This document shows positions 9,944 through 26,533 of a DNA stretch of 64,000 bases, piece after piece. Where the stretch lies: the NCBI GenBank assembly GCA_030645475.1, contig JAUSMA010000032.1, positions 5,515 to 69,514 of the forward strand, given 5' to 3'. Under the pieces are notes generated by a model. That model did no database searches, was not told where the DNA came from, and was given only the letters and a program-made list of their open reading frames with translations. Both the position numbers and the translations under genes were made by a program. The stretch comes from Nitrospirota bacterium (lineage in GTDB: Bacteria > Nitrospirota > Nitrospiria > Nitrospirales > Nitrospiraceae). Position 1 is the first letter of the stretch, and each line of letters starts with the position of its first letter.

Positions 9944-11026
9944 TCAGGCAAGCGATCGTGGGACAAGATGCACAGCACCAGCCTTGATCGCCGCGATGAC
10001 GGAGGCGCCAGACACCAGGCGCAAGTCCTCTACCGCCCCGCGCGTGATGGTTGCCGTGAGGGGGAAACCACAGTCGATCGTGACCTGCACCATCACGCCT
10101 TGCGGGGCAATATCGGTCACACGCCCCAGGAGATGATTACGGGCACTGGTCATCCCGCTCCCCGCAGGCTCCACCACCACATCTTCGGCACGGATACAGA
10201 CATAGACGGTTGCACCGATGGCATTACTACTCAGACCTTTCAGCCTCGTTCCGTTGACAGCCACCGTGGATAACCCGTCCGCCTGTTCGATCACCTCGCC
10301 TTGTACGACCGTCTCCACACCGACGATGCGCGCCACCTCCGCATTGGCCGGACGACTGAATACCTCATGAGGCTTCCCGACTTGATGGACCAGCCCCTTA
10401 CCCATCACCGCCATCACATCGCCCAACGTGAGCGCCTCCGACCAGTCGTGGGTCACAATGATCGAGGGCAGCGCTAATTGTTTCAGCAAGCTTCTAAGTT
10501 CCCCTCTCAGTTGAAGTCGGGTTGGCGCATCCAATGCCGACAAGGGTTCGTCGAGCAAGAGCAGTTGCGGCCTCGGCGCGACTGCTCTTGCCAACGCGAC
10601 CCGCTGCTGTTGGCCACCGGACAATTCTCGCGGTTTCGCCGCTTCCAACCCCTGCAACTGGAACAATTCCACCACCTCCGCAACTCTCTTGTTCCTCTCA
10701 GGGGAGGAGAAGGCCCCCAACCCATACGCAATATTTCCTGCCACGGAGTAGGTGGGGAAGAGCGCATAGTCTTGCGGCATGTACCCAATCTGTCGATCTT
10801 GCGGCGAGACCCTGATTCCCGATTTTGTATCTAACCAGGTCCGCGACAAAAACTGGATTCTCCCCTCTTCCGGCCATTCGAGTCCCGCAACGGACCGGAG
10901 AATGGTCGTTTTGCCTGACCCCGACGGACCGAACAGGATCAAGACGGTCGAGGCCTCGATCTCGTAGCGGAGATGGGCCTGAATAGGCGCCCGCCCGGAA
11001 AATGTCTTGGTCATGTCGATGGTCAT
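9944..11026 (-). CDS. modC: Molybdate ABC transporter ATP-binding protein with C-terminal TOBE domain
   Basis: Walker A GPSGSGKTT, signature LSGGQQQRV, Walker B LLLDEP, and a C-terminal TOBE-like domain. ATG at 11026 forms an ATGA overlap with the modB stop. Confidence 0.85.
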   Translation of the reverse strand: MTIDMTKTFSGRAPIQAHLRYEIEASTVLILFGPSGSGKTTILRSVAGLEWPEEGRIQFLSRTWLDTKSGIRVSPQDRQIGYMPQDYALFPTYSVAGNIAYGLGAFSSPERNKRVAEVVELFQLQGLEAAKPRELSGGQQQRVALARAVAPRPQLLLLDEPLSALDAPTRLQLRGELRSLLKQLALPSIIVTHDWSEALTLGDVMAVMGKGLVHQVGKPHEVFSRPANAEVARIVGVETVVQGEVIEQADGLSTVAVNGTRLKGLSSNAIGATVYVCIRAEDVVVEPAGSGMTSARNHLLGRVTDIAPQGVMVQVTIDCGFPLTATITRGAVEDLRLVSGASVIAAIKAGAVHLVPRSLA

Positions 11027-11697
11027 TTCTGCGGCCATACTGCCCACACCTTTCGATTCATCGCATAGACCAGGAGCAACACCCCATAGGAAACCGCGAG
11101 CAGCAACAGCGCCGTCTTGGCGGCTCCAGCGTAATTGAGCGCTTGTACTTCATCGTAAATATCGATCGAAACCGTTCGCGTTTCACCCTCAATGTTGCCC
11201 CCCACCATCAACACGACACCGAATTCTCCCAATGTATGAGCGAAACTCAATACCGCGCCGGTGACAAGTCCTGCCATGGAGAGCGGGACAATGAGCTTAA
11301 AGAACGTGGCGACTTTGGACACACCCAACGTCCAGGAGGCTTCGATCAAGCGGCGATCGACTTGCTCAAAGGCAGCAGCAAATGGTTGGACGGCAAACGG
11401 CAAACTGTAGAGGATCGACGCAAGGAGCAGACCTTCGAAGCTAAAGGGAAGCGGGTGCCCGACGAGATCGCTGTAGAATCGACCGACCGGGCTGTGGGGA
11501 CCGATGGCGACCAGAATATAAAAACCCAATACCGTCGGAGGAAGCACGAGCGGCAGCGCGACCACCGACTCGACAATGAATTTCCAGCGCCACTTTGAAA
11601 AGGTAAGCCAATAGGCGATGGGCAATCCGACCACCAGCAAAACGCCGGACGTCAAGCCGGCCAATTTGAATGTGACCCAGATGGCTGTCCAATTCAC
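11023..11697 (-). CDS. modB: Molybdate ABC transporter permease
   Basis: 224-aa polytopic protein with the EAA-type loop (IEASWTLGVSKVATFFKLIVPL) typical of ModB/CysT. Confidence 0.85.
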   Translation of the reverse strand: MNWTAIWVTFKLAGLTSGVLLVVGLPIAYWLTFSKWRWKFIVESVVALPLVLPPTVLGFYILVAIGPHSPVGRFYSDLVGHPLPFSFEGLLLASILYSLPFAVQPFAAAFEQVDRRLIEASWTLGVSKVATFFKLIVPLSMAGLVTGAVLSFAHTLGEFGVVLMVGGNIEGETRTVSIDIYDEVQALNYAGAAKTALLLLAVSYGVLLLVYAMNRKVWAVWPQK

Positions 11698-11730: not shown

Positions 11731-12036
11731 TCACCCACCTTTGCATCGAAACTGTATTCCCCAACGCCGGCCACTGACTTCCCCTTCTGCGCCTTCGACA
11801 CTGGACATGCTGCCGTATCCCTGCACTTCCCCATCTTTGAGAACGGTATAGCCGGAGGGACATTTCTTTTCGATGAGCTTCAACGCGTCTCTTCGATGCG
11901 GTGATCCCATCGGACCGCCCCGGTCTTCCTTGAACAGGTATGTCACGACTCCGCCGGTATCGGTTTCATGCGTGAGCAACACCGCCTCGGAACAGCCGAA
12001 ACTGGTAACCAGCAGGGCCAACCAGATCACCTTCAT
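11731..12036 (-). CDS. Small lipoprotein of unknown function inserted between modA and modB
   Basis: Start at MKVIWLALLVTSFGC (lipobox SFGC). About 100 aa. I recognise no family. Confidence 0.5.
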   Translation of the reverse strand: MKVIWLALLVTSFGCSEAVLLTHETDTGGVVTYLFKEDRGGPMGSPHRRDALKLIEKKCPSGYTVLKDGEVQGYGSMSSVEGAEGEVSGRRWGIQFRCKGG

Positions 12037-12043
12037 CCATGGC

Positions 12044-12820
12044 TTAACTGGGTAGCGTAAACCCATAGCGCTTCATGACCTCCTGTCCGTGAGGGCCTTT
12101 GATGAATTCAAGAAACTGTTTCGCGCCTTCTGGGTTTTTTGACTGCTTCAAGATCACGGCTCCTTGTTCCAGAGGTGGATGCGCAACCGCCGGAACCTCC
12201 CAGTATGTCCCTCGCGTTTGCATCGTCGGCGCAAGTGCCAGGGACAGCGCGATAATCCCGATGTCGCAGGCGCCGGATTCGATGAACTGCGCCGCTTGCG
12301 AGATGTTCTCTCCAAGAATGAGCCTGTCTTTGACCTGGTCATAAACCTTGAAGTGTTCCATCGCAGCAACCGCGGCACGTCCATAGGGGGCATGTTTGGG
12401 ATTGGCAATGGCGATCTTCTTGATCGTCGGATCACGCAAGACTTCCAGCCCCTTGGAAAGATCCAGGCGCAACCCATTGCCGGACCACAATACGATTCGC
12501 CCAACCGCGTAGGGGTAGAGCGAGCCAGGTAAGGTGAGACCTGCCTCTTCCAGTTTCTTGGGGTAGCCGATGTCGGCTGAAAAGTAGAGGTCGAACGGCG
12601 CGCCATTCTGAATTTGCGCATAGAAATTGCCCGAGGATCCGAGCGTCAGCTTCACATGGTTGCCGGTCGTCTGTTCGAATTCAGTCACGATTTCTTTAAA
12701 GGCAAAACTCAAATCTGACGCCGCGGCAATAATGACCTCCGCTGCAGACACGCTCGGAGCAAGGCAGGCCAACAGTAGACCACAGGCCAGAAACATCGAC
12801 AGGCAATATTTCAATTTCAT
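12044..12820 (-). CDS. modA: Periplasmic molybdate-binding protein
   Basis: ATG at 12820 with GAGGTG upstream. Signal peptide ending in SVSA. ModA-type motifs: AAASDLSFAF, GSSGNFYAQIQNGAPFDLYFSAD, ANPKHAPYG. Confidence 0.85.
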   Translation of the reverse strand: MKLKYCLSMFLACGLLLACLAPSVSAAEVIIAAASDLSFAFKEIVTEFEQTTGNHVKLTLGSSGNFYAQIQNGAPFDLYFSADIGYPKKLEEAGLTLPGSLYPYAVGRIVLWSGNGLRLDLSKGLEVLRDPTIKKIAIANPKHAPYGRAAVAAMEHFKVYDQVKDRLILGENISQAAQFIESGACDIGIIALSLALAPTMQTRGTYWEVPAVAHPPLEQGAVILKQSKNPEGAKQFLEFIKGPHGQEVMKRYGFTLPS

Positions 12821-12851: not shown

Positions 12852-14648
12852 TTAGAAAAATATTTGATACTGCAACCGGATCGCATTTTCGATCAGCGTC
12901 CCTGCATGCGCATCCAGGGGCACGGAACCGGACGGACAGTTGGCCGGGCAAGCCCCTGTCGCCGGCAACGGGGCGCTCCGCCCGATCGCAAAACCACCCT
13001 GGCCCATGGCGATATTGCTATAGGTCAGCATGATTTGATGGTCATAGGTCCCACTGAGGAACCAATTCAGCGAGAAGTCGACTTCCTTAATCAAATCGCC
13101 TCCCGAATTGGTATCGGGATCCCACCAGGCATAGCGGGCGGCAAATTCCAGTTTTCGTGGAATCAGGTAATAACCGGATTGAACGTACCAGCCTGTCGTG
13201 TTGCCAAACTGCCCAGGAGCATAGGTGGTACAAGGGCCACCGACTCCATTCGTCACCATACAAGGGAGGCCCTTGGTATGCCGTGTCACGTTCCTGAACC
13301 AATATTCCGCTTGCAAGGAAAAGCCACGATACTTGAAGGCATAATCCAGCGTCCAGGTTGAAAAGTCGACCACGCCCTGTCCGAGAATACGTGCGTTCCC
13401 GTTTTGAGCCAGTGCGCGGCGAACGGTTAAATTTGCCAGATCGATCCCCACAAACGCATTACCTGTACTGGTATCGATCGCCGGATTATAGGCATACCCT
13501 CCACCGACAGCCATCTGCGGAGTCTCCGAATAGGCCAAATCGCCTTCACCGTAACCTGCCCGGCCCAGGATATTCGCCTGGAGTCTCGCCACGTACATCA
13601 ACTGATTAACATTGCTTCGAACATTTGCGTTGAGGCTGCGCTGATTGACGGGGCATCCTGCTGGTGACGGAAAGGGATTCCCGCCCGTTTGTCCGCCCGG
13701 GCAGCCGACGGTCGGCTCTTCGCTCGTAAATTGCGCGAAGCGGTTTACCAACGGGCCGGCACCATTAAACACGCCGAAGTAATAATTGACCGGATACACT
13801 TCTTCGTCGTTCATAATCGTGATGCCCACATCTCGACGATTGATGCCGTTCGCCGTAAAGGCATCCATTGCGAGAGCGCGGCTCGCAAACTGCATCGAAG
13901 CCGTCGAATTGATCTGCGACCGATTGAAGTAGACCTTGTACTGGCCGAGTTGCACGTTCAACCAGGGGATATGGGTGCTGGTCACATTCATATCGAACAC
14001 AGAAAGAGCTCCCGGCGCCTGGGCGTTCTCCGAAGTCTCGCCGGCAAGTTGGATGTAATATTTGAAATCCGGGCTAAAGAGGTGCCCCATGAAATAGAGC
14101 CGCGCAGTCCTCAAATTAAATGAGGATGCGTCACCGATAGAGCGATTGGCCCGGTAATCGCCGAACACACCGAGCAGTTCCGGAAAGTTTTTTGAATCGC
14201 CGGACTCGCGGTAGGCCTCATTTCTGGAGCGCTGTGTGAACCGCGTCGCGAACCGTGCCCGTATCTTCAAGAGAAAGGCATTGTCGTTCATGGAAAAGTT
14301 AAAGCCCCGGTCATACCAGGCCTTGAAGCTCGGCTGGAGCAGATAGATTCGCTCCTGCGACTCTCTGACGACCGCGTCATATTCTTCCTGCGTGATGGTG
14401 CCCTGTTTGACGGCTCGCTCCAGGAGCAGTTTGGTCGCCGGATCCATACTCTCGACAAAGACATACTTCCCATCCTTCTCCACCAGTTTTCCCGCATCAG
14501 CCGCGAAGACCGGGAGTGGCCCGAACCACGCAAGGCAAACCAACCACAGAGCGAATCCGACAATCTTGCTCCACCGTGGTACAGCAACTGAGGCAACAGA
14601 TGATCCCCCGATGCCTCTGAATGACTGCCACATGTCACCACTCTTCAT
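12852..14648 (-). CDS. Outer-membrane porin (phosphate-selective porin O/P-like beta-barrel), paralogue 1
   Basis: Long signal peptide ending in VFAADAG, alternating beta-strand pattern, and C-terminal LQYQIFF (terminal Phe). It shows similarity throughout its length to the ORF at 19107..20747. The start is uncertain (ATG 14648, ATG 14633 or GTG 14663). Confidence 0.75.
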   Translation of the reverse strand: MKSGDMWQSFRGIGGSSVASVAVPRWSKIVGFALWLVCLAWFGPLPVFAADAGKLVEKDGKYVFVESMDPATKLLLERAVKQGTITQEEYDAVVRESQERIYLLQPSFKAWYDRGFNFSMNDNAFLLKIRARFATRFTQRSRNEAYRESGDSKNFPELLGVFGDYRANRSIGDASSFNLRTARLYFMGHLFSPDFKYYIQLAGETSENAQAPGALSVFDMNVTSTHIPWLNVQLGQYKVYFNRSQINSTASMQFASRALAMDAFTANGINRRDVGITIMNDEEVYPVNYYFGVFNGAGPLVNRFAQFTSEEPTVGCPGGQTGGNPFPSPAGCPVNQRSLNANVRSNVNQLMYVARLQANILGRAGYGEGDLAYSETPQMAVGGGYAYNPAIDTSTGNAFVGIDLANLTVRRALAQNGNARILGQGVVDFSTWTLDYAFKYRGFSLQAEYWFRNVTRHTKGLPCMVTNGVGGPCTTYAPGQFGNTTGWYVQSGYYLIPRKLEFAARYAWWDPDTNSGGDLIKEVDFSLNWFLSGTYDHQIMLTYSNIAMGQGGFAIGRSAPLPATGACPANCPSGSVPLDAHAGTLIENAIRLQYQIFF

Positions 14649-14723
14649 AAATCCCTCGTCCACAAGTACGTTTAACGCCTAAGAATGAGCGTCACCAAAA
14701 TAGAGGCTCATGCGAATGGGTGA

Positions 14724-15365
14724 TTAAGGCGACGAGGCTGTTTTCAGGAACTCCCGAAAATCCACTCCTCGCCGGTCGGTCGTCTTGGGGTCGTGCACAT
14801 AGAATCGACCAGGCTCGAAATACAGGAGGTAGGTGTTCGCCGGAGTCCAGGGGGTTGGATAGTTGTAATCGTAGGGATCGGACTTCGTGACCGGCTGCTG
14901 AACATGAAAGTAATCAATGGTCAGATGGAGCAGGCGATCCTGTATGGCCACCCATCCGCCCGTGACATCGCGCCGGTACCGGGGGTTCATACCAGGAGCA
15001 AAGAGTTCGAAGTAGACCCGCTCTTCGGGCCCCACCTTCTGCAGGGCAGCGGCAAGTTGCGGGGCCAACAGCTGTAATTCGTCTTCCCTGAATAATTTCT
15101 TTGGTGGATCCTCTTCGGCATACCAGCGAAGCGGCAGACGCTGCTGTTCACGCAGAGAAAACCCGCGGAAAATGGCGACAATCTGTTCAGGGGCAATCTG
15201 GACTGGATGCCGATATCCTGCCGACGTGACTTCCCGCTGCAGCAGCACGGCGACCCGTTGATCCTCATGCACCACCGTCGTGGTGTAGGGAATGCGGGCA
15301 CAACCTGAACCAATCACAACGAGAAGGGCAACCACCATGGCTGCCGACTGCCTCCGGACATACAT
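14724..15365 (-). CDS. Lipoprotein of unknown function, paralogue 1
   Basis: ATG at 15365 with GGAGG 6 nt upstream. Lipobox VIGSGC. It shares FREDELQLLAPQLAAALQKVGPEERVYFEL...TGGW..I...LLHLTI with the ORF at 21598..22332. Confidence 0.7.
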   Translation of the reverse strand: MYVRRQSAAMVVALLVVIGSGCARIPYTTTVVHEDQRVAVLLQREVTSAGYRHPVQIAPEQIVAIFRGFSLREQQRLPLRWYAEEDPPKKLFREDELQLLAPQLAAALQKVGPEERVYFELFAPGMNPRYRRDVTGGWVAIQDRLLHLTIDYFHVQQPVTKSDPYDYNYPTPWTPANTYLLYFEPGRFYVHDPKTTDRRGVDFREFLKTASSP

Positions 15366-15466
15366 GCCGAACCTCCTACCGATTTACGCCACCACGATAC
15401 AAAAATGATTGACTGGTATTCTTGACGTATGGAGCAAAAAAATATTGCGCCCGTTACTTCCCTTAT

Positions 15467-16300
15467 TTATTTGGGCAACCCATAACCCAAGCCTTTCAAG
15501 ATGCTTCGGGCTTCCGGAGACTGGGAAAACGCGAGGAACTCTTCGCACAGTGGACGATTGGGGCAGTACCGCTCCATCGCCAGAGAATGGACGATCGGAC
15601 GGATGGCCTGCTCAGGCGCCACGGCGACGATGCGAACTCGCTCCCTCTTCTCATAGGCATCCGGGCCGAAGACAATGCCGACATCCGCTTGTCCGTTGAG
15701 GACGTGATCCAACACACCCCGCGAATCCGTCGCTACATCCAACCGGCCTTTCATAGGCTCCGCAATTCCCAAGGCATTAAAAAGTTCGTGAGTCTTCTGT
15801 CCAACCACGGTCAGCAACGGATCTGCGACAGCTACTCGTATCCGAGTATCCTGAGCAAGAGCCTCGAACGACGGCGGCGCATCGACAAGCGATTCAGGCA
15901 CGACCATCACGAGCGAGACCGTCGCGTATGGCCGGCGCGTCTGTGGCAGCACATAATATTTCTGCTCCATGCGAGTGATCAGCTCATCGCCACCCGGTGC
16001 AATGATGTGAATGGGGCCGGACCCAATGAAATATCGTCCCGAGGGATGATTCTCCATCGCGGCGATTGTGCGACGCAGATCCAAGCCAGAATCGAAATAG
16101 AGTCGTACCTTCACATTCTGATGAACCGCCTCAAAGGCCCTGGCAAGGGCTTCAAGCGGCGGGGCCAGACTCGGAGAGGCGGCGATGACTAGGGGTTCCA
16201 ACGCCAATGCCCCCTGTGCCAGGGCACCATTGAAAATGATCCAACACAACAAAGGTCGGCACATACGCATCGCGATTATCTTGAGTCGAGGATCAATCAT
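15467..16300 (-). CDS. ModA-like periplasmic oxyanion-binding protein, paralogue 2
   Basis: ATGA overlap with the upstream regulator stop. Signal-like N-terminus, PBP type-2 ModA-like layout (VIAASPSLAPPLEALARAF, VAVADP, ADVGIVF) with an insertion. Confidence 0.65.
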   Translation of the reverse strand: MIDPRLKIIAMRMCRPLLCWIIFNGALAQGALALEPLVIAASPSLAPPLEALARAFEAVHQNVKVRLYFDSGLDLRRTIAAMENHPSGRYFIGSGPIHIIAPGGDELITRMEQKYYVLPQTRRPYATVSLVMVVPESLVDAPPSFEALAQDTRIRVAVADPLLTVVGQKTHELFNALGIAEPMKGRLDVATDSRGVLDHVLNGQADVGIVFGPDAYEKRERVRIVAVAPEQAIRPIVHSLAMERYCPNRPLCEEFLAFSQSPEARSILKGLGYGLPK

Positions 16301-17472
16301 GTTTGCAGTGCGTGAACCTTTCCGGTTTCCCTCGTGTCGTATCCACCCAGCGCTTCGATTTCGTTCCGAAATGGCCGGCTGGCGATGGTCTCAAACAGAT
16401 GGGCCAGCGTTGGATGAGACTTGAGATAGGCTTTGGGAACCACGAGGTCGTAGCGCGCGGCTTGAAGTGGCACAAAATCGAGGCCAAAAAGTTGTGCGGC
16501 AGACCGGATCCCGATCCCGACGTCAGCCTGCTGGCCGGCGATGGCCCGGGCAACTTCAAAGTGAGACGATACCCTGCTCTCGTACCCGCGTATCTGCGTT
16601 GGATCGATCCCCGCCGCGCGTAGCCGTTGATCGAGCATGAGCCTGGCTCCCGCCCCCTCTTCTCGATTCACGAGGGTCACCAGAGGGTCCACCAAGTCAG
16701 CGGCAGCACGGATGGACTTGGGATTGCCAGGACGGACGAGGAAGCCCTCTTCCCAGGTTGCGAAGGTGACGACATCGTAATTTGTACCCTTCAGCGCCTG
16801 TCGGAGGAACGGCAGATTGGATTCCCCGGTCGTCGGATCGAGGAGATGAAGACCGGCTACGTGCACCTCGCCCTCCTGCAAGGCTCGCAGGGCCGCCATA
16901 CTCCCCATGGTCCAACCCACGACGGAGGTAAGATCCTTTCCCCGCCGCAAATGCGCGCCGGCAAGAAAGATCGCAGGATCACAGCCAGCGACAGAAATCT
17001 CCTGTTCGATCGCCTGACGATCGCGTGACAAGTTCACTCGCACCATTGAGCCCGACGTCTGCCCATGCACATCCGCTGCATATCCATCGGCAGGCACACT
17101 ATAGGAAAGAACGTCGCCCAATTCCGTGACAGGGCGCACAACCATGCGAGTTCCTACCCTCGCGACCTTCACGCGAACCGTCGAGACCTTTTCATCGGGC
17201 TGGGGAAAATGACCGATCAGCTTCCCTTCAATAACATCCTGCGCCTCCACAAGACTGAAGAGATCTTCCACTCGACAGCCCAATGCCGCTGCCAGGCGAA
17301 GCGCAACCGCCGTGGTGGGCAGATAAAGATGGGACTCGATGGCAGAAACGGCCTGCCTGGTGATCCCGGATTTTCCGGCAAGTTCACCTTGCGAAAAGCT
17401 CCGTGAGACACGGATATCTTTTAGATGATTCGCGAAATGTTCGATTGATTCGGCTCGATGTGCCTGCGCCAT
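16297..17472 (-). CDS. Transcriptional regulator: XRE-type HTH fused to a PBP-like (COG1910-type molybdate/tungstate-binding) domain
   Basis: ATG at 17472. N-terminal HTH (FSQGELAGKSGITRQAVSAIES), then about 300 aa resembling the soluble oxyanion-binding domains seen in TunR/ModE-type regulators. Confidence 0.65.
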   Translation of the reverse strand: MAQAHRAESIEHFANHLKDIRVSRSFSQGELAGKSGITRQAVSAIESHLYLPTTAVALRLAAALGCRVEDLFSLVEAQDVIEGKLIGHFPQPDEKVSTVRVKVARVGTRMVVRPVTELGDVLSYSVPADGYAADVHGQTSGSMVRVNLSRDRQAIEQEISVAGCDPAIFLAGAHLRRGKDLTSVVGWTMGSMAALRALQEGEVHVAGLHLLDPTTGESNLPFLRQALKGTNYDVVTFATWEEGFLVRPGNPKSIRAAADLVDPLVTLVNREEGAGARLMLDQRLRAAGIDPTQIRGYESRVSSHFEVARAIAGQQADVGIGIRSAAQLFGLDFVPLQAARYDLVVPKAYLKSHPTLAHLFETIASRPFRNEIEALGGYDTRETGKVHALQT

Positions 17473-17624
17473 AGTGGCAGGCTTATAGCAATCATAGATT
17501 ACTAATAGCAAGTATAAAATGTATCATAATTGATATTTATTGATTTTTTTATTCAAAATAACCAATTCGAATCAATAGCCATTGCAGAGTATTCCTCCCG
17601 CATATGCCTATACATAATATATTG

Positions 17625-17654
17625 TTGACAATTTAGATTCATTTAGTTTATACT
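17625..17654 (+). promoter_or_regulatory. Candidate sigma-70 promoter (TTGACA-18-TATACT) with the direct repeat ATTTAG-N4-ATTTAG in the spacer
   Basis: TTGACA at 17625-17630 and TATACT at 17649-17654. The spacer is atttagattc atttagttta. It lies in a strikingly AT-rich 155-bp divergent region (17512-17667). Confidence 0.55.
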
Positions 17655-17691
17655 ATACATATCATTCATGACCGGAATAATAGGAATTGAC

Positions 17692-18741
17692 ATGCGCCTT
17701 ACATTATTTCACCAGCTTCAATACCGGAACATCTTCCTAACATCGCTCGCGTTCCTCTTCTTCACGGCGACCGCCATCCCTTCACAGTCTTCTGCGCTAG
17801 ATTGGGTCCCGACCGATGAGGAGATCAAGAAATATCGCCAGAGCTGGAATCCGCTTTCCCACGGACCAGTTCTCCTCCAGGCTGTCGACACCCAACCGAA
17901 GGGACAACTTTCCATCCGCGAATTTATCTTCTCGCAAATCGGCGAAAGTAGCTTCGGCAATCGCCTGAGCGGTCCGACCGACAGCAAGAACGGACCGGTG
18001 CATCTCTATCAAGTGTCCCCTTCTATCAATACGGCCTATGGACTGACCAATCACATCGAACTAGGCGCCGCCATTTCGATGAATTCATTCTGGGCAAACC
18101 AGAACGGGCAGAGGACGAGCTCGACGGGATTCGGGGACACCTCGCTCATCATGAAATACCGGCCCATCATCCAAGATCCTGGAGGCTGGCGCCCGTCCGT
18201 GACCCATTACACGCAAGTCGTACTCCCCACCAGCCGTTGGGCCGATGCCGAGAAGCCACCAGGGGGGTTCTCGCCGCTCGGCCGACTACCCAGTACGCGG
18301 TTCGGGGAATATGGACTGACCCAAGGCTTGATGACGCGAAAAAACTTCGAACCGATTCGCATCAGCGCAGCCGTGTTCTATACCTATGCCGCACCGGGAG
18401 AGAGCGGCGGCAGGAACGCCTACACCGGGGACGTAGTCAACACACGCTTGATCTTCGAACACATCCTGGATGACAAGAGCGGGTTCGGGTACAACATCGA
18501 AGTCAGCACCCTGCACGGACTCACCTGGCGGGCGGATGGACATGAAGTCAACGCAGGGCAGAAAAACGGATTTACGATCATCGGCGTGGAACCGGCGCTG
18601 CAATGGAACTTTTCGCAAAACTGGCTGGTCGCCGTCGGCTGCCAGTTTACGGTGGCAGGCCAGAACGCCATCAACGCCATCTATCCGAATCTGTCCGTCT
18701 TCTGGTTCTGGGATAAGAGCGGCAAAATCGTCATGCGCTAG
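17692..18741 (+). CDS. Outer-membrane beta-barrel protein (MetA-pathway/transporter-like OMP family)
   Basis: Signal peptide ending in SQSSA. GFGDTSLIMKYR motif and an aromatic-rich C-terminal strand (LSVFWFW). An alternative ATG is at 17668. Confidence 0.6.
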   Translation: MRLTLFHQLQYRNIFLTSLAFLFFTATAIPSQSSALDWVPTDEEIKKYRQSWNPLSHGPVLLQAVDTQPKGQLSIREFIFSQIGESSFGNRLSGPTDSKNGPVHLYQVSPSINTAYGLTNHIELGAAISMNSFWANQNGQRTSSTGFGDTSLIMKYRPIIQDPGGWRPSVTHYTQVVLPTSRWADAEKPPGGFSPLGRLPSTRFGEYGLTQGLMTRKNFEPIRISAAVFYTYAAPGESGGRNAYTGDVVNTRLIFEHILDDKSGFGYNIEVSTLHGLTWRADGHEVNAGQKNGFTIIGVEPALQWNFSQNWLVAVGCQFTVAGQNAINAIYPNLSVFWFWDKSGKIVMR

Positions 18742-18774
18742 CAGTCTCACACAAGATCGATCAGGACCATCATC

Positions 18775-18957
18775 ATGGGAAGCACAGAACGATCAGATCG
18801 GCAGGACCCTCAGGCAATCGAGCAGGCCATTCGCCTCGCCCTGAGAGGCCTTCGCTTTGGGTCCATCGAGATCATCGTGCATGACTCCAAAGTCGTGCAG
18901 ATCGAGCGCAAGGAAAAGATGCGCCTTGAGGGCGAAGGCCCAACCGCCACACGCTGA
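18775..18957 (+). CDS. DUF2292 (YezD-like) small protein
   Basis: The 60-aa ORF contains GSIEIIVHDSKVVQIERKEKMRL, which is the YezD/DUF2292 core. Confidence 0.65.
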   Translation: MGSTERSDRQDPQAIEQAIRLALRGLRFGSIEIIVHDSKVVQIERKEKMRLEGEGPTATR

Positions 18958-19106
18958 GAATACGATGATACGTCAGAACTGTTGTCCCAGTTAAAGGAGA
19001 ATGACCGGCCGTCCAGATGACTGGAGGCCCAAGACCGACTTGTTCAATCGTAAAATTGAGAACTGACCGGACCACCGGAAGTTCACATGTCACGGAGGGT
19101 AGCGAC

Positions 19107-20747
19107 ATGAGAATTTCCGGTGTGTTTTTTATCACGGTTACAGCCTTTGCGCTCTTTGCAGGCCCGACACCACGAGCACAGGCCGTCGAGGAAGGCCAAC
19201 TCGTAAAGAAAGAAGGCAAGTGGGAATACTACTCCGGCGAAGACCCCGGACTGAAGTATCTCTACCTCAAAGGAATCATTACCCAAGAGGAGTACGACAA
19301 GGGCTTGAAGGTGATCGAGACGAAAGAACGTATCTCCAAGCCGAACTTCAATATCGACGTCAACAACGGATTGAACATCCGTGTCGGAGAAAAATTTTTC
19401 TTGAAGCTCCGCCTGCTCACCCAGGTGCGCTACACCCACAGTTCTTACAATTCAATCTGGGGGTCGGTCGGAGACTCAAGAAACCCTGAGATCCTCGGAG
19501 GCCAGGTCGAATATCGAGCGGTGAAAAAACAGAGCGATTCGAATCTCTTTTCGGTCCCTCGCGCTCGCCTTCAATTTCTGGGATACGCCTTTGATCCAGA
19601 CTTCCGCTACAATTTCTCCCTGGCACTCGATCAGACATCCTGGGATCAGGAAGGCGGCAGTGGCAGAGCTAGACTTCTCGATGCCTATGTCGCCTCCTGG
19701 CATATCCCCTGGGCAACGGTCCAACTCGGCCAACAACGGGTCTGGTTCAATCGAGCCCAGATCAGTTCGATCGCCACGTCCACCTTCGCGGACAATATGA
19801 TTGTCCAGCGGGCATTTTCCGCCAACCAGATCGACAGCCGCGATATTGGGATCAGCATCCTCAGCGACGAAGACCAGTACAAATTCAACTATGCGATTGG
19901 TATCTGGGGGGGAGTCGGACCGAATCTGACTCGTGAAGGCACCTCCGTCAGTCAACGAGTGCTGCCCCCCAGCGGGTCACCTGGGGCACAGCCCTCAGGA
20001 ACGACTCGGACCTACAACTATGACACCCGCACCCTGACCGGCGAGATGCTGTACACGTTTCGCGGGCTCTACAAGATTGCAGGCAATCCTGGATACGGAC
20101 AGGGAGACATCCTGAATTCTCGCACCCTGCAATCAGCCATTGCCTTCGGTTATGCCTACAATCCAGCCCAAAACTACCTGAGTGCCATTCGATCAGACAT
20201 TGTAGACCGAGGGTATCGTCAGAGTGTCACCAAAGCCATGAACGGCAGACTCCTCGCCGGGGGCATCTACGACTTCCAGACCTATGAAACGGATTTCATC
20301 GCGAAGTACCAGGGCTGGTCTCTCCAGTCTGAAGGATACTTCCGCCACCAAAGGGTGCGAAGCAGGGACAGTGGATCCACACCATTTGATTTAGCAACAA
20401 TCCCCATCGCATCGATCACCGGCCCCCCCGTTGATCTGGGGCAAGCCTGGGGCTGGTATGCCCAGGTCGGGAAATATGTCATCCCCAGGAAGCTCGAACT
20501 CGCCGTCCGCTACGGGGTAATGGATCCTTCGACCAAGCAGAAGGACGATCTGACAAAGGAGTTCGGCGCCGCCATCAACTACAGCTTCGACGGCACATAC
20601 AATAACCGGCTCGTCATCGACTACTCGAATATCACCATGGGAAGCGGCGGGCGTGCACCGGATCGGTTTCCGTTTGAGAGCACACCGGGATTTGGCCGCG
20701 ATCTCATCGAAAACCGGGTCAACGTGCAGTACCAATTCTATTTCTAG
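19107..20747 (+). CDS. Outer-membrane porin (porin O/P-like), paralogue 2
   Basis: ATG at 19107 with GGAGGG upstream. Signal peptide ending in RAQA. It shares the N-terminal segment (EGKWEYY..ITQEEYDKG) and the barrel with 12852..14648. It ends in VQYQFYF. Confidence 0.75.
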   Translation: MRISGVFFITVTAFALFAGPTPRAQAVEEGQLVKKEGKWEYYSGEDPGLKYLYLKGIITQEEYDKGLKVIETKERISKPNFNIDVNNGLNIRVGEKFFLKLRLLTQVRYTHSSYNSIWGSVGDSRNPEILGGQVEYRAVKKQSDSNLFSVPRARLQFLGYAFDPDFRYNFSLALDQTSWDQEGGSGRARLLDAYVASWHIPWATVQLGQQRVWFNRAQISSIATSTFADNMIVQRAFSANQIDSRDIGISILSDEDQYKFNYAIGIWGGVGPNLTREGTSVSQRVLPPSGSPGAQPSGTTRTYNYDTRTLTGEMLYTFRGLYKIAGNPGYGQGDILNSRTLQSAIAFGYAYNPAQNYLSAIRSDIVDRGYRQSVTKAMNGRLLAGGIYDFQTYETDFIAKYQGWSLQSEGYFRHQRVRSRDSGSTPFDLATIPIASITGPPVDLGQAWGWYAQVGKYVIPRKLELAVRYGVMDPSTKQKDDLTKEFGAAINYSFDGTYNNRLVIDYSNITMGSGGRAPDRFPFESTPGFGRDLIENRVNVQYQFYF

Positions 20748-20782
20748 GACGCACGAATTATTTAACCGTCAGGAGAACAATC

Positions 20783-21598
20783 GTGAAACACCAATGGTTC
20801 AGGTCCTTACTCTTCTTCGGAATCGCGACGGCATCGCTCTGGGTCACCCCACCCGTGCAGGCACAACCGGAGCCCCTCACCGTCGCAGCCGCCAACAGCC
20901 TCAGCGATGTGTTTCGTAAAGTACTGCCGCTTTTCGAGGCCCAGCACAAAGATATCAACGTGCGGGTTATCTACGGCCCCTCGCAAACGCTCCGTAATCA
21001 GATTGAACAGGGCGCACCAGTGGACATCTTCCTGCCGTCGCTGTTTGAGGAAATTGAACAGCTCGAACAGAAAGGGCTGATCATTCAAGGAACTAAACGG
21101 GCCTATGCCGGCACGTCGCTGGTCTTGATCACCAGCACGACCCACCCCGCCCCCATCGGCTCCGTCCAAGATCTGCAGACCGTCCCGATCCGACGGATCG
21201 CCGTCGGGGATCCCAAATCCTCGTCGGTAGGGAAAGTGGCGGCGCAGTTTATCAAATATAACAAGCTCGATGCCCAACTGAAGTCTCATTACGTCTTCGG
21301 CGAGCATTCCCGTGCCGTGCTCGATCTAGTCGCCAACGGCGAAGCTGAGGTCGGCGTCCTCTATCGGACAGACGTCGTCGAGAATGCGAAGGTCCGCATT
21401 CTCGATACAGCCCAGGCCGGTTCCCATACTCCTATCCGCTATGGAGTTGCCGCGACCTGGACCGCCAAGAACCTTTCAGGCGCGGGAGACTTCATCACAT
21501 TTTTACTGACACCGGAAATACAAACCCTCTTGCAAGAGCACGGGTTCGATCGTGCAATACCACAGGCAGGGACCGCTCAAGGAAAGGAAGGACAATAA
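20783..21598 (+). CDS. ModA-like periplasmic oxyanion-binding protein, paralogue 3
   Basis: GTG start with AGGAG 7 nt upstream. Signal peptide. ModA motifs: VAAANSLSDVF, YGPSQTLRNQIEQGAPVDIFLPS, VGDPKSSSVG. Confidence 0.75.
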   Translation: MKHQWFRSLLFFGIATASLWVTPPVQAQPEPLTVAAANSLSDVFRKVLPLFEAQHKDINVRVIYGPSQTLRNQIEQGAPVDIFLPSLFEEIEQLEQKGLIIQGTKRAYAGTSLVLITSTTHPAPIGSVQDLQTVPIRRIAVGDPKSSSVGKVAAQFIKYNKLDAQLKSHYVFGEHSRAVLDLVANGEAEVGVLYRTDVVENAKVRILDTAQAGSHTPIRYGVAATWTAKNLSGAGDFITFLLTPEIQTLLQEHGFDRAIPQAGTAQGKEGQ

Positions 21599-22332
21599 TG
21601 AATCGCCTCCCAAAAACTATGCCGCAACCGTCTGCATGGCCGCTTCGAGCCCTGTTGCTCATCGCCGGAATATCCATCATTACCGGTTGCGCGAACAAGC
21701 CCGTCCCACAATCGAAATCCATCTATGAGTCGGGGCTGAGCACGGTTCGATTGGAACAGGACCCCGACTCGATTTCCAATTCTCACCCCGCCACGCTGAC
21801 CGCCACCGAAGTGGGCACATTGCTTCGAGGAGTTCGCGCATGGGAACGGCGGAACGTCATTCACCGGCTGTTTGCCGGTGAAGCTGATCGAACCAGAGCG
21901 TTCCGGAACGAAGAGATTGCCGTATTGGCGCCGCCTCTAGCAAAGGCGTTGGCCCAGGCCGCTCCGACAGAGCGTGTGTACTTCCACTTGAGTCATGCCA
22001 CCGATCAGGGGGATGAGGAAACCACCACAGGCTGGATCTCCATCCGGGGACCGATTCTGCACCTGACCATCAGCGGCGTGCACGACCGGCACAGCCCTGG
22101 TCCCGATATCAGCAAGTACGACCGGCAACTGCCGAACATTCCTGAAGCCTCGGTATTGCACGATGTCACATACGAGCCGGAGGAATTCCTGGCTAAATCG
22201 GCTTCGAAGGCACGTTTCTGGGCACCGGATCAGCGTGAAGAGTTAGAGATCCGGTATCGAGAGGCGCTTTCGGCCATGCCGATTCAGCCGGGACTGGATC
22301 CTGGACGAACATTCAAGCCGTCCCAACCTTGA
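21598..22332 (+). CDS. Lipoprotein of unknown function, paralogue 2
   Basis: TAATG overlap with the upstream stop. Lipobox ITGC. Homologous to 14724..15365 (FRNEEIAVLAPPLAKALAQAAPTERVYFHL...TTGWISI...ILHLTI). Confidence 0.7.
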   Translation: MNRLPKTMPQPSAWPLRALLLIAGISIITGCANKPVPQSKSIYESGLSTVRLEQDPDSISNSHPATLTATEVGTLLRGVRAWERRNVIHRLFAGEADRTRAFRNEEIAVLAPPLAKALAQAAPTERVYFHLSHATDQGDEETTTGWISIRGPILHLTISGVHDRHSPGPDISKYDRQLPNIPEASVLHDVTYEPEEFLAKSASKARFWAPDQREELEIRYREALSAMPIQPGLDPGRTFKPSQP

Positions 22333-22358
22333 ACGAACCAACTGCAATAAGGATGATC

Positions 22359-23327
22359 ATGAAGATACTCGTTGTGCTGTTTCTAGGAGTCTGGACGCTC
22401 ATTACCCCGCCCTCTCACGCCATCGCAGGGGACACGATCCGCGTCGGGCATTTCCCCAACATGACCCATGTCCAAGGCTTGGTGGCCCATCATCTCTCTC
22501 GCTCCGGCCGGGGATGGTTTGAACAACGGCTGGGAAGCGACGTCAAGATCGAGTGGTATGTCTACAATGCTGGACCAAGCGCCATGGAAGCGATCCTGGC
22601 GGACTCCATTGACCTTACCTACGTGGGCCCTAGTCCTGCATTGAACGCCTACGCCAAATCCAACGGCGAAGAAGTCCGGATTATCGCCGGCGCCGCCGCC
22701 GGGGGCGCAGCCCTCGTCATTCAGCAGGATTCGCCCCTCAAGCAACCAGCCGATTTCCGCGGGAAAACCATCGCCACCCCGCAACTCGGCAACACCCAGG
22801 ACATTGCCTGCCGCGCCTGGCTGGCGTCCGGAGGTTTAACGATCACCCAAACCGGCGGGGATGCGTTCATCGTTCCGACCCCGAACCCTGATCAGCTCTC
22901 GTTATTTCAACAGAAGAAACTGGACGCCGTGTGGACAGCCGAACCATGGGTCTCGCGGCTGGAGCGGGAGGCGGGCGGCAAAGTCCTCGTGGAACAATCG
23001 AAAGAGAGCATCACCGTCCTGGTCTCAAGCGTGAAATTTCTCAAGACCAAGCGTGAGCTGGCGAAGAGGTTCGCTCAAGCTCACCGGGAACTGACCGACT
23101 GGATTCTCTCGCATCCGGAAGAAGCCAAGAAGATGGTTCAGCAAGAACTGGCAGCCGAAACACAGGCCAAAGTCTCAGCCGAGTTGATCGCACACGCTTG
23201 GCCCAGGATTGGGTTGACCACGGAGGCCTCTCCTACGGAGTACCAACAATTTGTCGCACAGGCCCAACGCGCAGGTTTTATGCGAAAAACGCCTGACTTG
23301 TCGCGGCTCATTGAACGGGTGAATTGA
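22359..23327 (+). CDS. ABC transporter periplasmic substrate-binding protein (NitT/TauT, SsuA/NMT1-like)
   Basis: ATG at 22359 after AAGGA. Signal peptide ending in SHA. NMT1/SsuA-like motifs (IRVGHFPNMTH, GPSPAL). The start could also be 22329 or 22353. Confidence 0.7.
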   Translation: MKILVVLFLGVWTLITPPSHAIAGDTIRVGHFPNMTHVQGLVAHHLSRSGRGWFEQRLGSDVKIEWYVYNAGPSAMEAILADSIDLTYVGPSPALNAYAKSNGEEVRIIAGAAAGGAALVIQQDSPLKQPADFRGKTIATPQLGNTQDIACRAWLASGGLTITQTGGDAFIVPTPNPDQLSLFQQKKLDAVWTAEPWVSRLEREAGGKVLVEQSKESITVLVSSVKFLKTKRELAKRFAQAHRELTDWILSHPEEAKKMVQQELAAETQAKVSAELIAHAWPRIGLTTEASPTEYQQFVAQAQRAGFMRKTPDLSRLIERVN

Positions 23328-23328
23328 A

Positions 23329-24135
23329 ATGGGTATGTCCGAAACGGCCCAAACACATACCCTATCCCCCAAACTCGTCCTCGAACATGTCTCGAAGTGG
23401 TTCAAGACCAGTTCGCTGCACGTGCATGCGCTCGATGACGTGACACTCCGCATCACTGAAGGAGAGTTCGTCTGTCTCGTCGGCCCCAGCGGCTGCGGAA
23501 AATCGACCCTGCTCAATATCATCGCCGGCCTCGACCGACCCGATCAGGGGCTGGTTCAAGCCGATGGTCAGAGCATCACAGGGCCGGGGCCCCATCGTCT
23601 CGTGATGTTTCAAGAAGCCGCGCTCTTCCCCTGGCTGACGGTTCTGGGCAATGTGCTGTTCGGGTTACAGCTGAGAAACGGGCTCACCGCCGCCGCGCGA
23701 CGAGAAACCGCCGAGTATTATCTGGAACTCGTAGGCTTGAAGCGGTTCATGCATGCCAATGTGCACGAGCTATCGGGCGGCATGAAACAGCGGGTGGCCT
23801 TGGCCAGAGCGCTGGCTCCGAATCCCAGCATGCTCTTGATGGACGAACCCTTCGGCGCGCTGGATGCCCTGACGCGGGAGCAGTTGTATGGAGACATTCA
23901 ACGTATCTGGAGCCAGCATCGGAAAACGATCGTCTTCGTCACGCACAACGTGCGCGAGGCCGTCTGCTTGGGAGACCGCGTGATATTGTTCTCGCCGAAC
24001 CCTGGACGGATTCGCGAGGAATTCGCCATTCCCCTCCCTCGTCCACGCGACATCAACAGCGTGGATCTAGCCCGCTATGCGACGGAGATCACCCGCGTAT
24101 TGAAAGGCTATGTCCAGACCGAGGTGGCTGGATGA
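23329..24135 (+). CDS. ABC transporter ATP-binding protein (NitT/TauT family)
   Basis: Walker A GPSGCGKST, signature LSGGMKQRV, Walker B LLMDEP. Confidence 0.85.
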   Translation: MGMSETAQTHTLSPKLVLEHVSKWFKTSSLHVHALDDVTLRITEGEFVCLVGPSGCGKSTLLNIIAGLDRPDQGLVQADGQSITGPGPHRLVMFQEAALFPWLTVLGNVLFGLQLRNGLTAAARRETAEYYLELVGLKRFMHANVHELSGGMKQRVALARALAPNPSMLLMDEPFGALDALTREQLYGDIQRIWSQHRKTIVFVTHNVREAVCLGDRVILFSPNPGRIREEFAIPLPRPRDINSVDLARYATEITRVLKGYVQTEVAG

Positions 24136-24902
24136 TCGCACGGTGGCTGACTGCATCCCTGTTCTTCGTGTTCCTCGTGGTGGCATGGCATCTGGTCGTG
24201 GAGGCACACATCTGGTCTCCCGTCTTGCTGCCCTCGCCCCTTAGCGTCTTTGAGTACCTTCGGTCCGCGGTTGAAGACGGCACGCTCCGGGAGGCTACGG
24301 TCGTCACCGTACGGCGGCTCCTCATCGGCTATGGATTGGGAATCCTCGCCGGGCTTCCCTTGGGATTACTCACCGCATCATCTCGCTGGTGCCAGGACAC
24401 GATCGGCATCCTCGCGCTGGGACTCCAAACCCTCCCCAGCGTCTGCTGGGTGCCGCTGGCCCTGCTCTGGTTCGGCCAAACGGAATCCGCCATGCTGTTC
24501 GTCGTGGTAATGGGAACCCTCTGGTCATTGATCATTGCGACCGACAACGGAGTGCGGACCGTTCCCCCCATTTACGCCAGGGCCGCACGCAGCATGGGGT
24601 CGACGGGACTCCATACCTGGACGCATGTGATCCTGCCGGCGGCGCTTCCATTTTTGTTGAGCGGCATGAAGCAGGGCTGGGCCTTCGCCTGGCGTTCCCT
24701 CATGGCCGCCGAGATTTTCGTCACGATTCTGACCGGCTTCGGTCTCGGCCACTTGCTGCATTACGGTCGTGAATTGAGTGCCATGGACCAAGTGATCGGC
24801 GTCATGCTCGTGGTCGTCATCATCGACCTCGCGGTCGATACAACACTCTTTGCCCCCATAGAGCGATTTCTCCATCGCCGTTGGGGCACCGAACGGGCTT
24901 GA
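24132..24902 (+). CDS. ABC transporter permease (NitT/TauT family)
   Basis: ATGA overlap with the ATPase gene. Six-helix BPD-type permease with an EAA-like loop (ARAARSMGSTGLHTWTHVILPAALP). Confidence 0.8.
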   Translation: MIARWLTASLFFVFLVVAWHLVVEAHIWSPVLLPSPLSVFEYLRSAVEDGTLREATVVTVRRLLIGYGLGILAGLPLGLLTASSRWCQDTIGILALGLQTLPSVCWVPLALLWFGQTESAMLFVVVMGTLWSLIIATDNGVRTVPPIYARAARSMGSTGLHTWTHVILPAALPFLLSGMKQGWAFAWRSLMAAEIFVTILTGFGLGHLLHYGRELSAMDQVIGVMLVVVIIDLAVDTTLFAPIERFLHRRWGTERA

Positions 24903-24973
24903 GTCACGCCCCGCATGATTCGACTCCGCCGTGGCAGGCTGACACTTCTCCGGCCGCTGTGCTAGGCTGCGCC

Positions 24974-26533
24974 ATGCCTGCCAGTTGGCTCAGTCGCCTC
25001 TCCATCGGCCAAAAGCTTGCCATCTCGTTTGGCCTGATCGTCATTCTATTGATCGGCAGCTTCTCCGCGACGCTTGTGTATCTCTCACGCGTGAATAGTT
25101 ACGTCGATCGGCATCAACGGATCACGATCCCGGGCGTCGTCACGGCATCGGAGATGCTCCGCAACCTCTTCGACATGCAGACCCATATGCACCATCTCCT
25201 CGAACATCTGGACACCGCGACCCAAGCCATCAGCCTGAAGACCATCGCAGACATCGAGCACCGAACGCTCACCGCACTGGACACCTATCAAGCGACCCAC
25301 GCCGCGCGAACACACCCCGTCTTGTATGGCATGCTCCAACAGCATGGACGGGGCAACCTGGCCGACGAGGAAAATCTCACGATCGTCGCCATTGCCGATG
25401 GTATGAGCGCTCTCCGCGCTCAGCGTGAAGACATCGAGACCGCTGCTAGCCGGCACACGAAAAATCCCGCAGACACAGAATTCCTCTATGAACAGACCGC
25501 GGCCAGGATCGCAGATGCCATCGCCTCGCTCATTGAAGTTCACCGCAAAATCGATGTGGAGATGAAAATCGAGGGGGATCGCCTCGTCGAGCAGGCACGG
25601 CTCATCGTCTTCGGAGTGGTCGGCCTGTTGGGGCTTCTCGTCCTGTCGATCTACCTCATGATGAAACAACTCGTGGCCAACCCTCTCAAACGCTTAGCCG
25701 CCACGGCAGACCGTGTCGCCCACCATGACCTCGCGGCGCAGTTTGAGCCCTGGCCCACGCAGGATGAGGTCGGGATCCTGGCCAACTCCCTGACGGCCAT
25801 GCTGGCGAATCTCCGCGAGCGGGGCACCGCCCTGATGCGCAAGACCAAGGAACTCGAAGCCTTCACCTACTCTATTGCACATGACCTCAAAGGACCTCTT
25901 CGCGAAATCGAAGGGTTCTCCTCGCTCCTGGAAAAGCGATTTCAAGAAGCCGGAGACCCGCAAGTCCAGCACCACATCGACGTGATCCGTCGATCCGCCC
26001 TGCGCCTCACGCACATGATCGATGCCCTGCTCAAGTATTCACGACTGGAACAACAAGATTTCCCACGCACCCGCTTCAATGTGCTGGAGATGATCAACAG
26101 CCTGCTCGTCGACCGGCAGAGCCAGTTCACCGGCATCGCACCTCGGATCACCATCAATCTCCCCTTCGCCGACCTGTATGGCGAACCGGTCAGCATCCGG
26201 CAGGCCCTGGTCAATCTCCTCGACAATGCCATCAAGTTCTCCCGTTTCTCTCCGGCTCCAAGCATCAACATCGGAGGACAGCAGACGCCGACCGAACGTA
26301 GGCTCTGGATACAGGACAATGGTATCGGTTTCGACACCGACCAGGAACAAAAGCTCTTCGGTCTTTTCGAGCGATTACACAATGCCCAGGATTACGAAGG
26401 CACCGGCGTCGGCCTGGCCATTGTGAAAATGGTCATGGAGAAACATGGAGGCCGTGCCTGGGCCGAATCATCCCCTGGCACAGGCAGCACATTTTCTCTG
26501 GCATTTCCGAATAACCAGGAAGCGATCAGTTAG
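24974..26533 (+). CDS. Sensor histidine kinase (N-terminal four-helix-bundle-type sensor, HAMP, HisKA, HATPase_c)
   Basis: ATG at 24974. Two TM segments. H-box FTYSIAHDLKGPL, N-box LLDNAIKF, G-box GTGVGLAIV. Confidence 0.85.
   Translation: MPASWLSRLSIGQKLAISFGLIVILLIGSFSATLVYLSRVNSYVDRHQRITIPGVVTASEMLRNLFDMQTHMHHLLEHLDTATQAISLKTIADIEHRTLTALDTYQATHAARTHPVLYGMLQQHGRGNLADEENLTIVAIADGMSALRAQREDIETAASRHTKNPADTEFLYEQTAARIADAIASLIEVHRKIDVEMKIEGDRLVEQARLIVFGVVGLLGLLVLSIYLMMKQLVANPLKRLAATADRVAHHDLAAQFEPWPTQDEVGILANSLTAMLANLRERGTALMRKTKELEAFTYSIAHDLKGPLREIEGFSSLLEKRFQEAGDPQVQHHIDVIRRSALRLTHMIDALLKYSRLEQQDFPRTRFNVLEMINSLLVDRQSQFTGIAPRITINLPFADLYGEPVSIRQALVNLLDNAIKFSRFSPAPSINIGGQQTPTERRLWIQDNGIGFDTDQEQKLFGLFERLHNAQDYEGTGVGLAIVKMVMEKHGGRAWAESSPGTGSTFSLAFPNNQEAIS

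Follow-up and report, generated by a model that had tools for sequence, protein, structure and literature searches.

The 64,000-nucleotide stretch analysed here (the window: positions 5,515 to 69,514 of contig JAUSMA010000032.1, assembly GCA_030645475.1, from a Nitrospirota bacterium) is best read as coming from a Nitrospira-like nitrite oxidiser and as carrying its locus for molybdate acquisition. In addition to the inner-membrane importer ModA1-ModB-ModC, this locus is predicted to encode a three-gene cassette in two paralogous copies, each with a porin, a lipoprotein and a ModA-family substrate-binding protein (SBP): cassette A (porinA, lipoA and ModA2) and cassette B (porinB, lipoB and ModA3). 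We propose, at about an even chance of being right, that it is a dedicated outer-membrane entry cassette for oxyanions, namely molybdate, which would feed ModABC as the porin OprP works with PstS, with an accessory lipoprotein added. The proposal draws its support from the paralogy of the two copies, the family assignments of their products, the strict co-occurrence of the genes in related genomes, their joint relocation and joint replacement, and the conservation of the binding pocket in ModA3.

All the open reading frames (ORFs) that the initial annotation had placed in this region were found in the same positions (Table 1). The minus-strand operon starts with a regulator combining HTH_3 and PBP_like domains, continues through ModA2, lipoA, porinA, ModA1, a small lipoprotein and modB, and ends with modC; it is tightly packed and several start and stop codons overlap. 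The plus arm has, in order, a promoter, a 357-residue protein, a DUF2292 protein, porinB, ModA3, lipoB, an SsuA-family ATP-binding cassette (ABC) system and a kinase with its regulator. Between the two arms the gene order is rotated and not mirrored: the minus arm reads SBP-lipoprotein-porin, the plus arm porin-SBP-lipoprotein, and the constant element of both cassettes is the SBP-to-lipoprotein adjacency. The initial annotation had interpreted porin, lipoprotein and binding protein as a possible conserved oxyanion-capture module, duplicated for two different anions, with the lipoprotein family as its unknown piece. Its genetic linkage, its behaviour as a unit and the familyless lipoprotein are borne out by the analysis below, whereas a physical complex and a service to two different anions are hypothetical.

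Paralogous porins with a conserved N-terminal extension

The paralogy of the porins, first noticed from shared terminal motifs, extends over their entire length: porinA and porinB align end to end with 36% identity (E 3e-110), from the N-terminal GK(Y/W)..ITQEEYD segment to the C-terminal QYQIFF or QYQFYF, and 14 arginines and 3 lysines are invariant between the two families. Porin_O_P proteins form trimers of 16-stranded barrels whose Arg/Lys ladder confers selectivity for anions (phosphate), and the invariant residues are indirect evidence for such a ladder here. porinA passes the Porin_O_P model (PF07396) with 41.1 bits against the Pfam gathering cut-off of 20.9, and the model is matched by 13 of 23 members of the porinA/B family (best E 9e-19); porinB alone has no Porin_O_P match at E ≤ 0.01. 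The sole NCBIfam match of porinA is the ExtI porin (NF040900), at 23 bits against an equivalog cut-off of 150, so it is not a member of that family. Comparison of the porin profile with PDB sequences gave no meaningful hit, and no solved porin, OprP/OprO included, matched significantly.

With ~550 residues both porins far exceed the 370 positions of the Porin_O_P model. Both families conserve an N-terminal extension of ~55 residues containing a helix that weakly resembles SHOCT, as does the N-terminus of porinB itself. General outer-membrane protein topology would place this extension in the periplasm. The corresponding segments, 14483-14648 on the minus strand and 19107-19290 on the plus strand, comprise a beta-hairpin and the SHOCT-like helix and are among the best conserved parts shared by porinA and porinB. 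A real SHOCT domain (E 2e-7) is found in two long-form relatives of the lipoprotein, which, together with the SHOCT-like helix of the porins, may point to an interaction motif common to both.

A lipoprotein family without known relatives

lipoA and lipoB, which had likewise been taken for paralogues, share 29% identity over ~208 residues (E 1e-22). Both have a bacterial lipoprotein (Lpp-type) signal, with lipoboxes ending in ..IGSGC in lipoA and ..IITGC in lipoB. The similarity between the paralogues, of porins as of lipoproteins, is far stronger than chance would give and is seen again in 80 other genomes. The description of the lipoprotein as a piece without a family also holds, as neither lipoA nor lipoB has a match in Pfam-A or NCBIfam, and the model of lipoA has no fold match in the PDB. 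Across 69 aligned family members the Pfam and NCBIfam matches are limited to C-terminal add-ons of long forms, and the lipobox cysteine is the only invariant column. The short forms (~210–250 residues) are the mod-linked ones, and the long forms (270–390 residues) extend at the C-terminus into a coiled coil, a SHOCT domain or a PG_binding_1 domain. Since PG_binding_1 is carried by a long-form relative, its presence argues for a periplasmic location of the lipoprotein. Conservation of C22, H53-P54, F92, G137 and P170 is family-wide, and that of R93, Y118, W138, H154, Y165, D166 and E184 is confined to the mod-linked subfamilies.

Homologue searches returned 564 clusters for lipoA and 705 for lipoB, all unannotated. 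The named homologues of the pair come without exception from Nitrospira, Nitrospiraceae or Nitrospirae/Nitrospirota, and for the 705 of lipoB those with an organism name are all Nitrospira or Nitrospiraceae. A profile search of 1.84 billion representatives gave 916 clusters, every named member of which belongs to Nitrospirota.

Prediction of the structure of the lipoprotein (lipoA) on its own, a check that the initial annotation had suggested, gave a confident AlphaFold 2 model from the 69-sequence alignment (mean predicted local distance difference test score, pLDDT, 87; predicted template modelling score 0.80), in which an alpha/beta fold contains a long three-stranded meander. An earlier model from a 25-sequence alignment reached a pLDDT of 70 and had no Foldseek match. 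The confident model has no fold relative in the PDB either: against 350,542 PDB chains Foldseek found none at E ≤ 0.001, the best hit having E 0.12 with a template modelling score below 0.25. A comparison of the lipoprotein profile with PDB sequences gave only coiled-coil noise from the tails of the long forms. An LptE-like identity for the lipoprotein was considered and rejected on the lack of a fold match in the Foldseek search with the pLDDT-87 model.

Three ModA-family binding proteins with different pockets

Each porin/lipoprotein pair adjoins an SBP of the ModA family, as had been noted, and both of these proteins pass the NCBIfam modA model TIGR01256, with its equivalog cut-off of 62.5 bits: ModA3 scores 142 and ModA2 72 bits, next to 207 for ModA1. 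ModA2 also matches SBP_bac_11 at 119 bits. ModA1, which lies on the other side of porinA from ModA2 and ahead of modB and modC, scores 175 bits to the solved ModA structures 9wgd and 7t4z, and ModA3 scores 121 bits to PDB entry 4kd5.

The anion pockets of the three paralogues, whose comparison had been recommended, were read from an alignment to E. coli ModA, where the hydrogen-bonding side chains are Ser12, Ser39 and Tyr170. ModA3 is canonical, ModA2 is altered, and ModA1 is of the Azotobacter vinelandii type, which uses pocket positions other than these three. The equivalents of S12, S39 and Y170 are invariant in 30 of 30 ModA3 orthologues, and because of this ModA3 looks like a competent binder of molybdate or tungstate. 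The orthologues of ModA2 keep S12 (51 of 52) and have glycine at position 39 (48 of 52) and phenylalanine at position 170 (44 of 52), together with a 14-residue insertion.

ModA2 and ModA3 are nearest paralogues of each other (93 bits), scoring 43 and 83 bits respectively against ModA1. The SBP of a divergent lineage, L085 in our numbering of related loci, is closest to ModA2, and all three are mutually closer than they are to ModA1. With the two cassette SBPs being each other's closest paralogues, the data are consistent with duplication of the module as a whole, as originally suggested, and it seems that the whole cassette was duplicated.

The cassette is conserved across Nitrospiraceae

We scanned one genome per GTDB species with lipoA-specific patterns, which means that only lipoA-type loci were retrieved directly. 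The scan gave 131 relatives, and the best 80 loci, onto which the proteins of the window were mapped, all belong to Nitrospiraceae or Nitrospirota, Ca. Nitrospira defluvii among them; the denominators below are loci with enough sequence. The linkage of lipoprotein homologues to a Porin_O_P-type porin and a ModA-type SBP, on which the initial annotation had staked its proposal, is close to complete. porinA is directly downstream of lipoA in 73/73 testable loci and ModA2 directly upstream of it in 76/76, and for lipoB the association with ModA3 holds in 29/30 loci, as does that with porinB. Given these adjacencies and the presence of cassette B in ~40% of loci, cassette A is core and cassette B accessory. 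In every genome examined cassette A lies between the PBP_like regulator and ModA1-ModBC. The order SBP-lipoprotein-Porin_O_P-ModA-ModB-ModC is kept where the lipoprotein has fallen to ~35% identity (L085 and L088) as well as at 56% (L089).

The three genes move and diverge together

Three observations bear on whether porin, lipoprotein and SBP act as a unit. Cassette B is found intact at another site, downstream of modC, in L044 and L064. In L088 (6104-9466) and L085 (6371-9756) the slot between regulator and ModA1 is filled by a divergent variant of cassette A. In L088 its identity to the window is 51% for the porin, 34% for the lipoprotein and 27% for the SBP, and the other genes of the same locus are at 80% (ModA1), 83% (357-residue protein), 76% (porinB) and 70% (ModA3). 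To us this pattern looks like replacement of the cassette or its accelerated co-divergence. The claim of a conserved module thus finds support in three genes that relocate together (L044, L064) and are replaced together (L088).

The third observation concerns rates of divergence in 51 loci. The divergence of lipoA correlates with that of porinA (Spearman 0.64; partial 0.51 when controlling for ModA1, modB and modC) and of ModA2 (0.48; partial 0.44), but not with that of ModA1 (0.12) or of the regulator (-0.01). These correlations are crude, as they use identity to a single reference and sequences that are related to each other.

Long-form relatives of the lipoprotein in other loci

Ten places with long-form relatives were inspected, which is a sample and not a systematic survey. 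The long form of L092 (4000-7020) is part of a PstS/PsiE/PhoB-like phosphate-starvation locus, where it neighbours a Porin_O_P gene but no ModA-type SBP. That of L084 (2246-7782) ends an operon made up of ArsR, PHO4, an unknown barrel-like protein and the arsenite oxidase AioBA. Long forms of L081, L090 and L091 are near urease or urea-type ABC genes. The neighbourhoods inspected in L083 and L087 show no obvious link, and P0275 is without a porin or ModA gene. Neighbouring proteins of 487 residues in L084 and 406 residues in L090 were compared with the porin profile by hhalign and showed no significant similarity; the former gives only a weak hint of Alginate_exp.

Since long forms occur in urease, arsenite-oxidase and phosphate-starvation loci, the lipoprotein family is not exclusively molybdate-linked. 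A link to anion handling and to Porin_O_P recurs among the long-form contexts, and the long form that adjoins Porin_O_P in the PstS/PsiE locus of L092 suggests a general partnership of this lipoprotein family with anion porins.

Proposed mechanism and alternatives

In the arrangement that we favour, the porin would act on tetrahedral oxyanions, molybdate first, as OprP acts on phosphate, giving them a selective way through the outer membrane when they are present only in traces. The lipoprotein would be anchored in the outer membrane and face the periplasm. Most likely it tethers the SBP of its cassette, or holds it in place, where the porin opens into the periplasm, probably via the N-terminal extension of the porin. 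The anion would be captured as it emerges and then handed to ModA1/ModBC. Anion porin and high-affinity importer would be co-regulated, probably by the PBP_like regulator. The substrate, the topology, the physical complex and the hand-over are what we infer in this scheme. One can go further and envisage porin, lipoprotein and SBP as a stable outer-membrane complex for TonB-independent, affinity-driven uptake, in which an SBP tethered under an anion porin would make the diffusion of a nanomolar oxyanion effectively one-way, and the lipoprotein family as a general, Nitrospirota-specific adaptor of anion porins with molybdate-linked, phosphate-linked and possibly arsenite-linked versions; this extension we regard as doubtful.

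Several observations weigh against a molybdate entry cassette. The evidence for linkage is confined to one bacterial family or order, so that vertical inheritance contributes to the synteny. ModA2, being without two of the three hydrogen-bonding side chains and having an insertion, may not bind molybdate. Cassette B is translationally coupled in the window, via lipoB, to an SsuA-family ABC transporter and not to ModBC, and in 11/30 loci it is a kinase/sigma-54 regulator pair that directly follows lipoB. Finally, some long forms of the lipoprotein have urease, resistance-nodulation-division (RND) efflux or unrelated genes as neighbours and no porin in the neighbourhood inspected.

How these facts are distributed over the possible explanations is best seen by asking what the lipoprotein partners. 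It could partner the barrel: the porin would still be oxyanion-selective, the lipoprotein would be an LptE-like assembly factor, plug or gate, and ModA2 and ModA3 would be free SBPs differing in affinity or specificity. The divergence of lipoA indeed tracks porinA most strongly, the long form of L092 has a Porin_O_P neighbour and no adjacent ModA-type SBP, and the porins far exceed the length of the Porin_O_P model. However, the adjacency that stays constant in both cassettes is that of SBP and lipoprotein, reinforced in cassette B by a stop/start overlap, and neither LptE nor any other solved barrel-partner lipoprotein resembles the confident lipoprotein model in fold. We consider this explanation unlikely.

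We put the same low weight on a second explanation, in which molybdate import is not the main task of the cassettes. They would serve other anions, the exclusion of tungstate, chromate or vanadate, periplasmic buffering of molybdenum or, for cassette B, a sulfur oxyanion, and their linkage to mod would reflect shared regulation. Such roles would fit the altered pocket of ModA2, the coupling of cassette B to an SsuA-family system in 8/30 loci, the chromate transporter beside the L089 locus and the lipoprotein relatives in arsenite-oxidase and phosphate-starvation loci. They fit poorly with the invariable position of cassette A between the PBP_like regulator and ModA1-ModBC, with the canonical molybdate/tungstate residues of ModA3 and with the scores of all three SBPs above the modA equivalog cut-off.

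A neighbourhood conserved merely by descent within Nitrospiraceae, the lipoprotein having an unrelated envelope role and no partnership with porin or SBP, would account for linked loci confined to one family or order and for long-form relatives in unrelated contexts, but it is improbable for a triplet that was duplicated and kept as a triplet, that relocates intact (L044, L064) or gives way as a block between flanks that remain similar, whose genes are translationally coupled and whose linkage persists to ~35% identity.

The entry cassette would matter for the physiology of the host. Nitrospira needs the molybdoenzyme nitrite oxidoreductase in large quantities and lives where molybdate is nanomolar. 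To our knowledge, the crossing of the outer membrane by trace oxyanions has rarely been addressed beyond phosphate (OprP) and TonB-dependent systems. The porin-lipoprotein-SBP cassette is a concrete, testable candidate for this step in globally important nitrifiers, and it defines a lipoprotein family that has no known fold relative and that stands repeatedly beside anion-handling genes in our sample.

Comparison with known systems

The closest parallel is the Pho regulon of Pseudomonas, where the anion-specific porin OprP/OprO is coupled to the high-affinity importer PstS-PstCAB. In both cases a Porin_O_P-family porin is genetically coupled to an SBP-dependent ABC importer of a scarce tetrahedral oxyanion. 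Unlike OprP/PstS, the present locus is a mod locus with porins of ~550 residues bearing a SHOCT-like N-terminal extension, and its cassette, present as a whole in two copies, further includes a lipoprotein of its own and a divergent second SBP. A substrate-specific porin coupled to an SBP/ABC importer is thus known already; what is new is the lipoprotein family without known relatives.

With canonical ModABC of E. coli and A. vinelandii the locus shares ModA1-ModB-ModC, which are ordinary members, and a ModA3 that keeps S12, S39 and Y170 of the E. coli protein. It departs from the canonical system in two extra ModA-clade SBPs that have no permease of their own and are each paired with a lipoprotein and a porin, one of them (ModA2) differing from E. 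coli ModA by S39G, Y170F and the 14-residue insertion. The pairing of genes for an outer-membrane beta-barrel and a dedicated lipoprotein is reminiscent of LptD-LptE, without similarity of the lipoproteins in fold or sequence.

ExtI of the Geobacter extHIJKL cluster, which is involved in selenite and tellurite reduction, is another outer-membrane porin-like protein implicated in oxyanion handling (PMC5877670), and the nearest oxyanion porin described so far. Unlike the porinA locus, the ext cluster has c-type cytochromes and no ModA-type SBP or ABC importer. Lipoproteins are encoded in the ext cluster as well.

The regulator resembles TupR-type regulators, of which PF12727 is the molybdate/tungstate-sensing part, in having this domain in the first gene of the operon; it differs in its N-terminal DNA-binding domain, which is HTH_3 (Xre type). 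TupR of Desulfovibrio, said to have been described by Rajeev and co-workers in 2019, is reportedly a PBP_like (PF12727) oxyanion-responsive regulator. A further paper (PMC10102598), which cites Rajeev et al. 2019, mentions PF12727 only as the C-terminal domain of the MoeA protein DVU0951. In full-text searches of the literature no porin or lipoprotein linked to mod was found described; the nearest papers mention a phosphate-selective porin and molybdate but treat them separately.

Neighbouring genes and regulation

Table 1. Genes of the molybdate locus, numbered from the first nucleotide of the window
Feature	Position	Strand	Remarks
modC, ABC ATPase with C-terminal TOBE	9944..11047	-	Pfam ABC_tran and TOBE; conserved operon end in related loci
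modB permease	11023..11697	-	Pfam BPD_transp_1; 71-98% identical across loci
Small conserved lipoprotein	11731..12036	-	Lipobox FGC; between ModA1 and modB
ModA1, canonical molybdate-binding protein of the ABC importer	12044..12820	-	ORF reaches 12886; likely start MKLKY at 12820
porinA, predicted Porin_O_P-type outer-membrane anion porin	12852..14648/14663	-	PF07396; C-terminal QYQIFF
lipoA, lipoprotein of uncharacterised Nitrospirota family, cassette A	14724..15365	-	Lipobox Cys22
ModA2, divergent ModA-clade SBP of cassette A	15467..16300	-	TIGR01256, SBP_bac_11
Regulator, HTH_3 and PBP_like (PF12727)	16297..17511	-	Stop overlaps ModA2 start
357-residue signal-peptide protein	17668..18741	+	First gene of plus arm
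DUF2292 (YezD-like) small protein, 60 residues	18775..18957	+	PF10055; between 357-residue protein and porinB
porinB, porinA paralogue, cassette B	19107..20747	+	Inside ORF 19017..20747
ModA3, ModA-clade SBP of cassette B, canonical binding pocket	20783..21598	+	TIGR01256
lipoB, lipoA paralogue, cassette B	21598..22332	+	Start overlaps ModA3 stop by 1 nt
SsuA-family SBP, ABC ATPase, permease	22329..24902	+	TIGR01728, NMT1_2, ABC_tran, BPD_transp_1
Histidine kinase (HAMP-HisKA-HATPase) and sigma-54-dependent response regulator	24881..27931	+	Pfam

The regulator is the first gene of the minus operon in every locus with enough upstream sequence. In it PF12727 (209 bits) is fused to a DNA-binding domain, HTH_3 (44 bits), and it is probably oxyanion-responsive. 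On the plus arm a strong sigma-70-like promoter (17625-17654, 11/12 matches) precedes the gene for the 357-residue protein. A scan for sigma-54 promoters found sites no commoner than chance and none sensibly upstream of the plus arm, and an Rfam search of the window found no riboswitch or other RNA.

The 357-residue protein has a signal peptide and no Pfam match, and may be another outer-membrane protein; its gene is present in 29 loci, sometimes elsewhere within the locus. The DUF2292 protein matches PF10055 at 59.9 bits, and its gene holds the same position in L088. The SBP that follows lipoB (22329..23327) belongs to the SsuA family (TIGR01728, 182.9 bits against a cut-off of 163.5), and SsuA-family ABC genes, of the sulfonate-importer type, follow lipoB in just 8/30 loci.

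The small lipoprotein at 11731-12036, a second uncharacterised lipoprotein of the mod operon, has ~101 residues with two further cysteines, is found in at least 48/80 loci and has no match in Pfam or NCBIfam. Some related loci contain extra genes that are absent from the window, for TOBE/Mop-like small proteins and unknown ORFs, lying in the interval from porin to ModA1 or in that from the small lipoprotein to modB: L003 (12534-13082 and 14251-14832), L085 (9802-10221) and L088 (10875-11712). On the plus strand of the window an antisense ORF, 15422..16192, is assumed to be spurious because it overlaps ModA2 almost entirely. In L089 the gene adjoining modC (12073-13401) encodes a ChrA-type chromate transporter.

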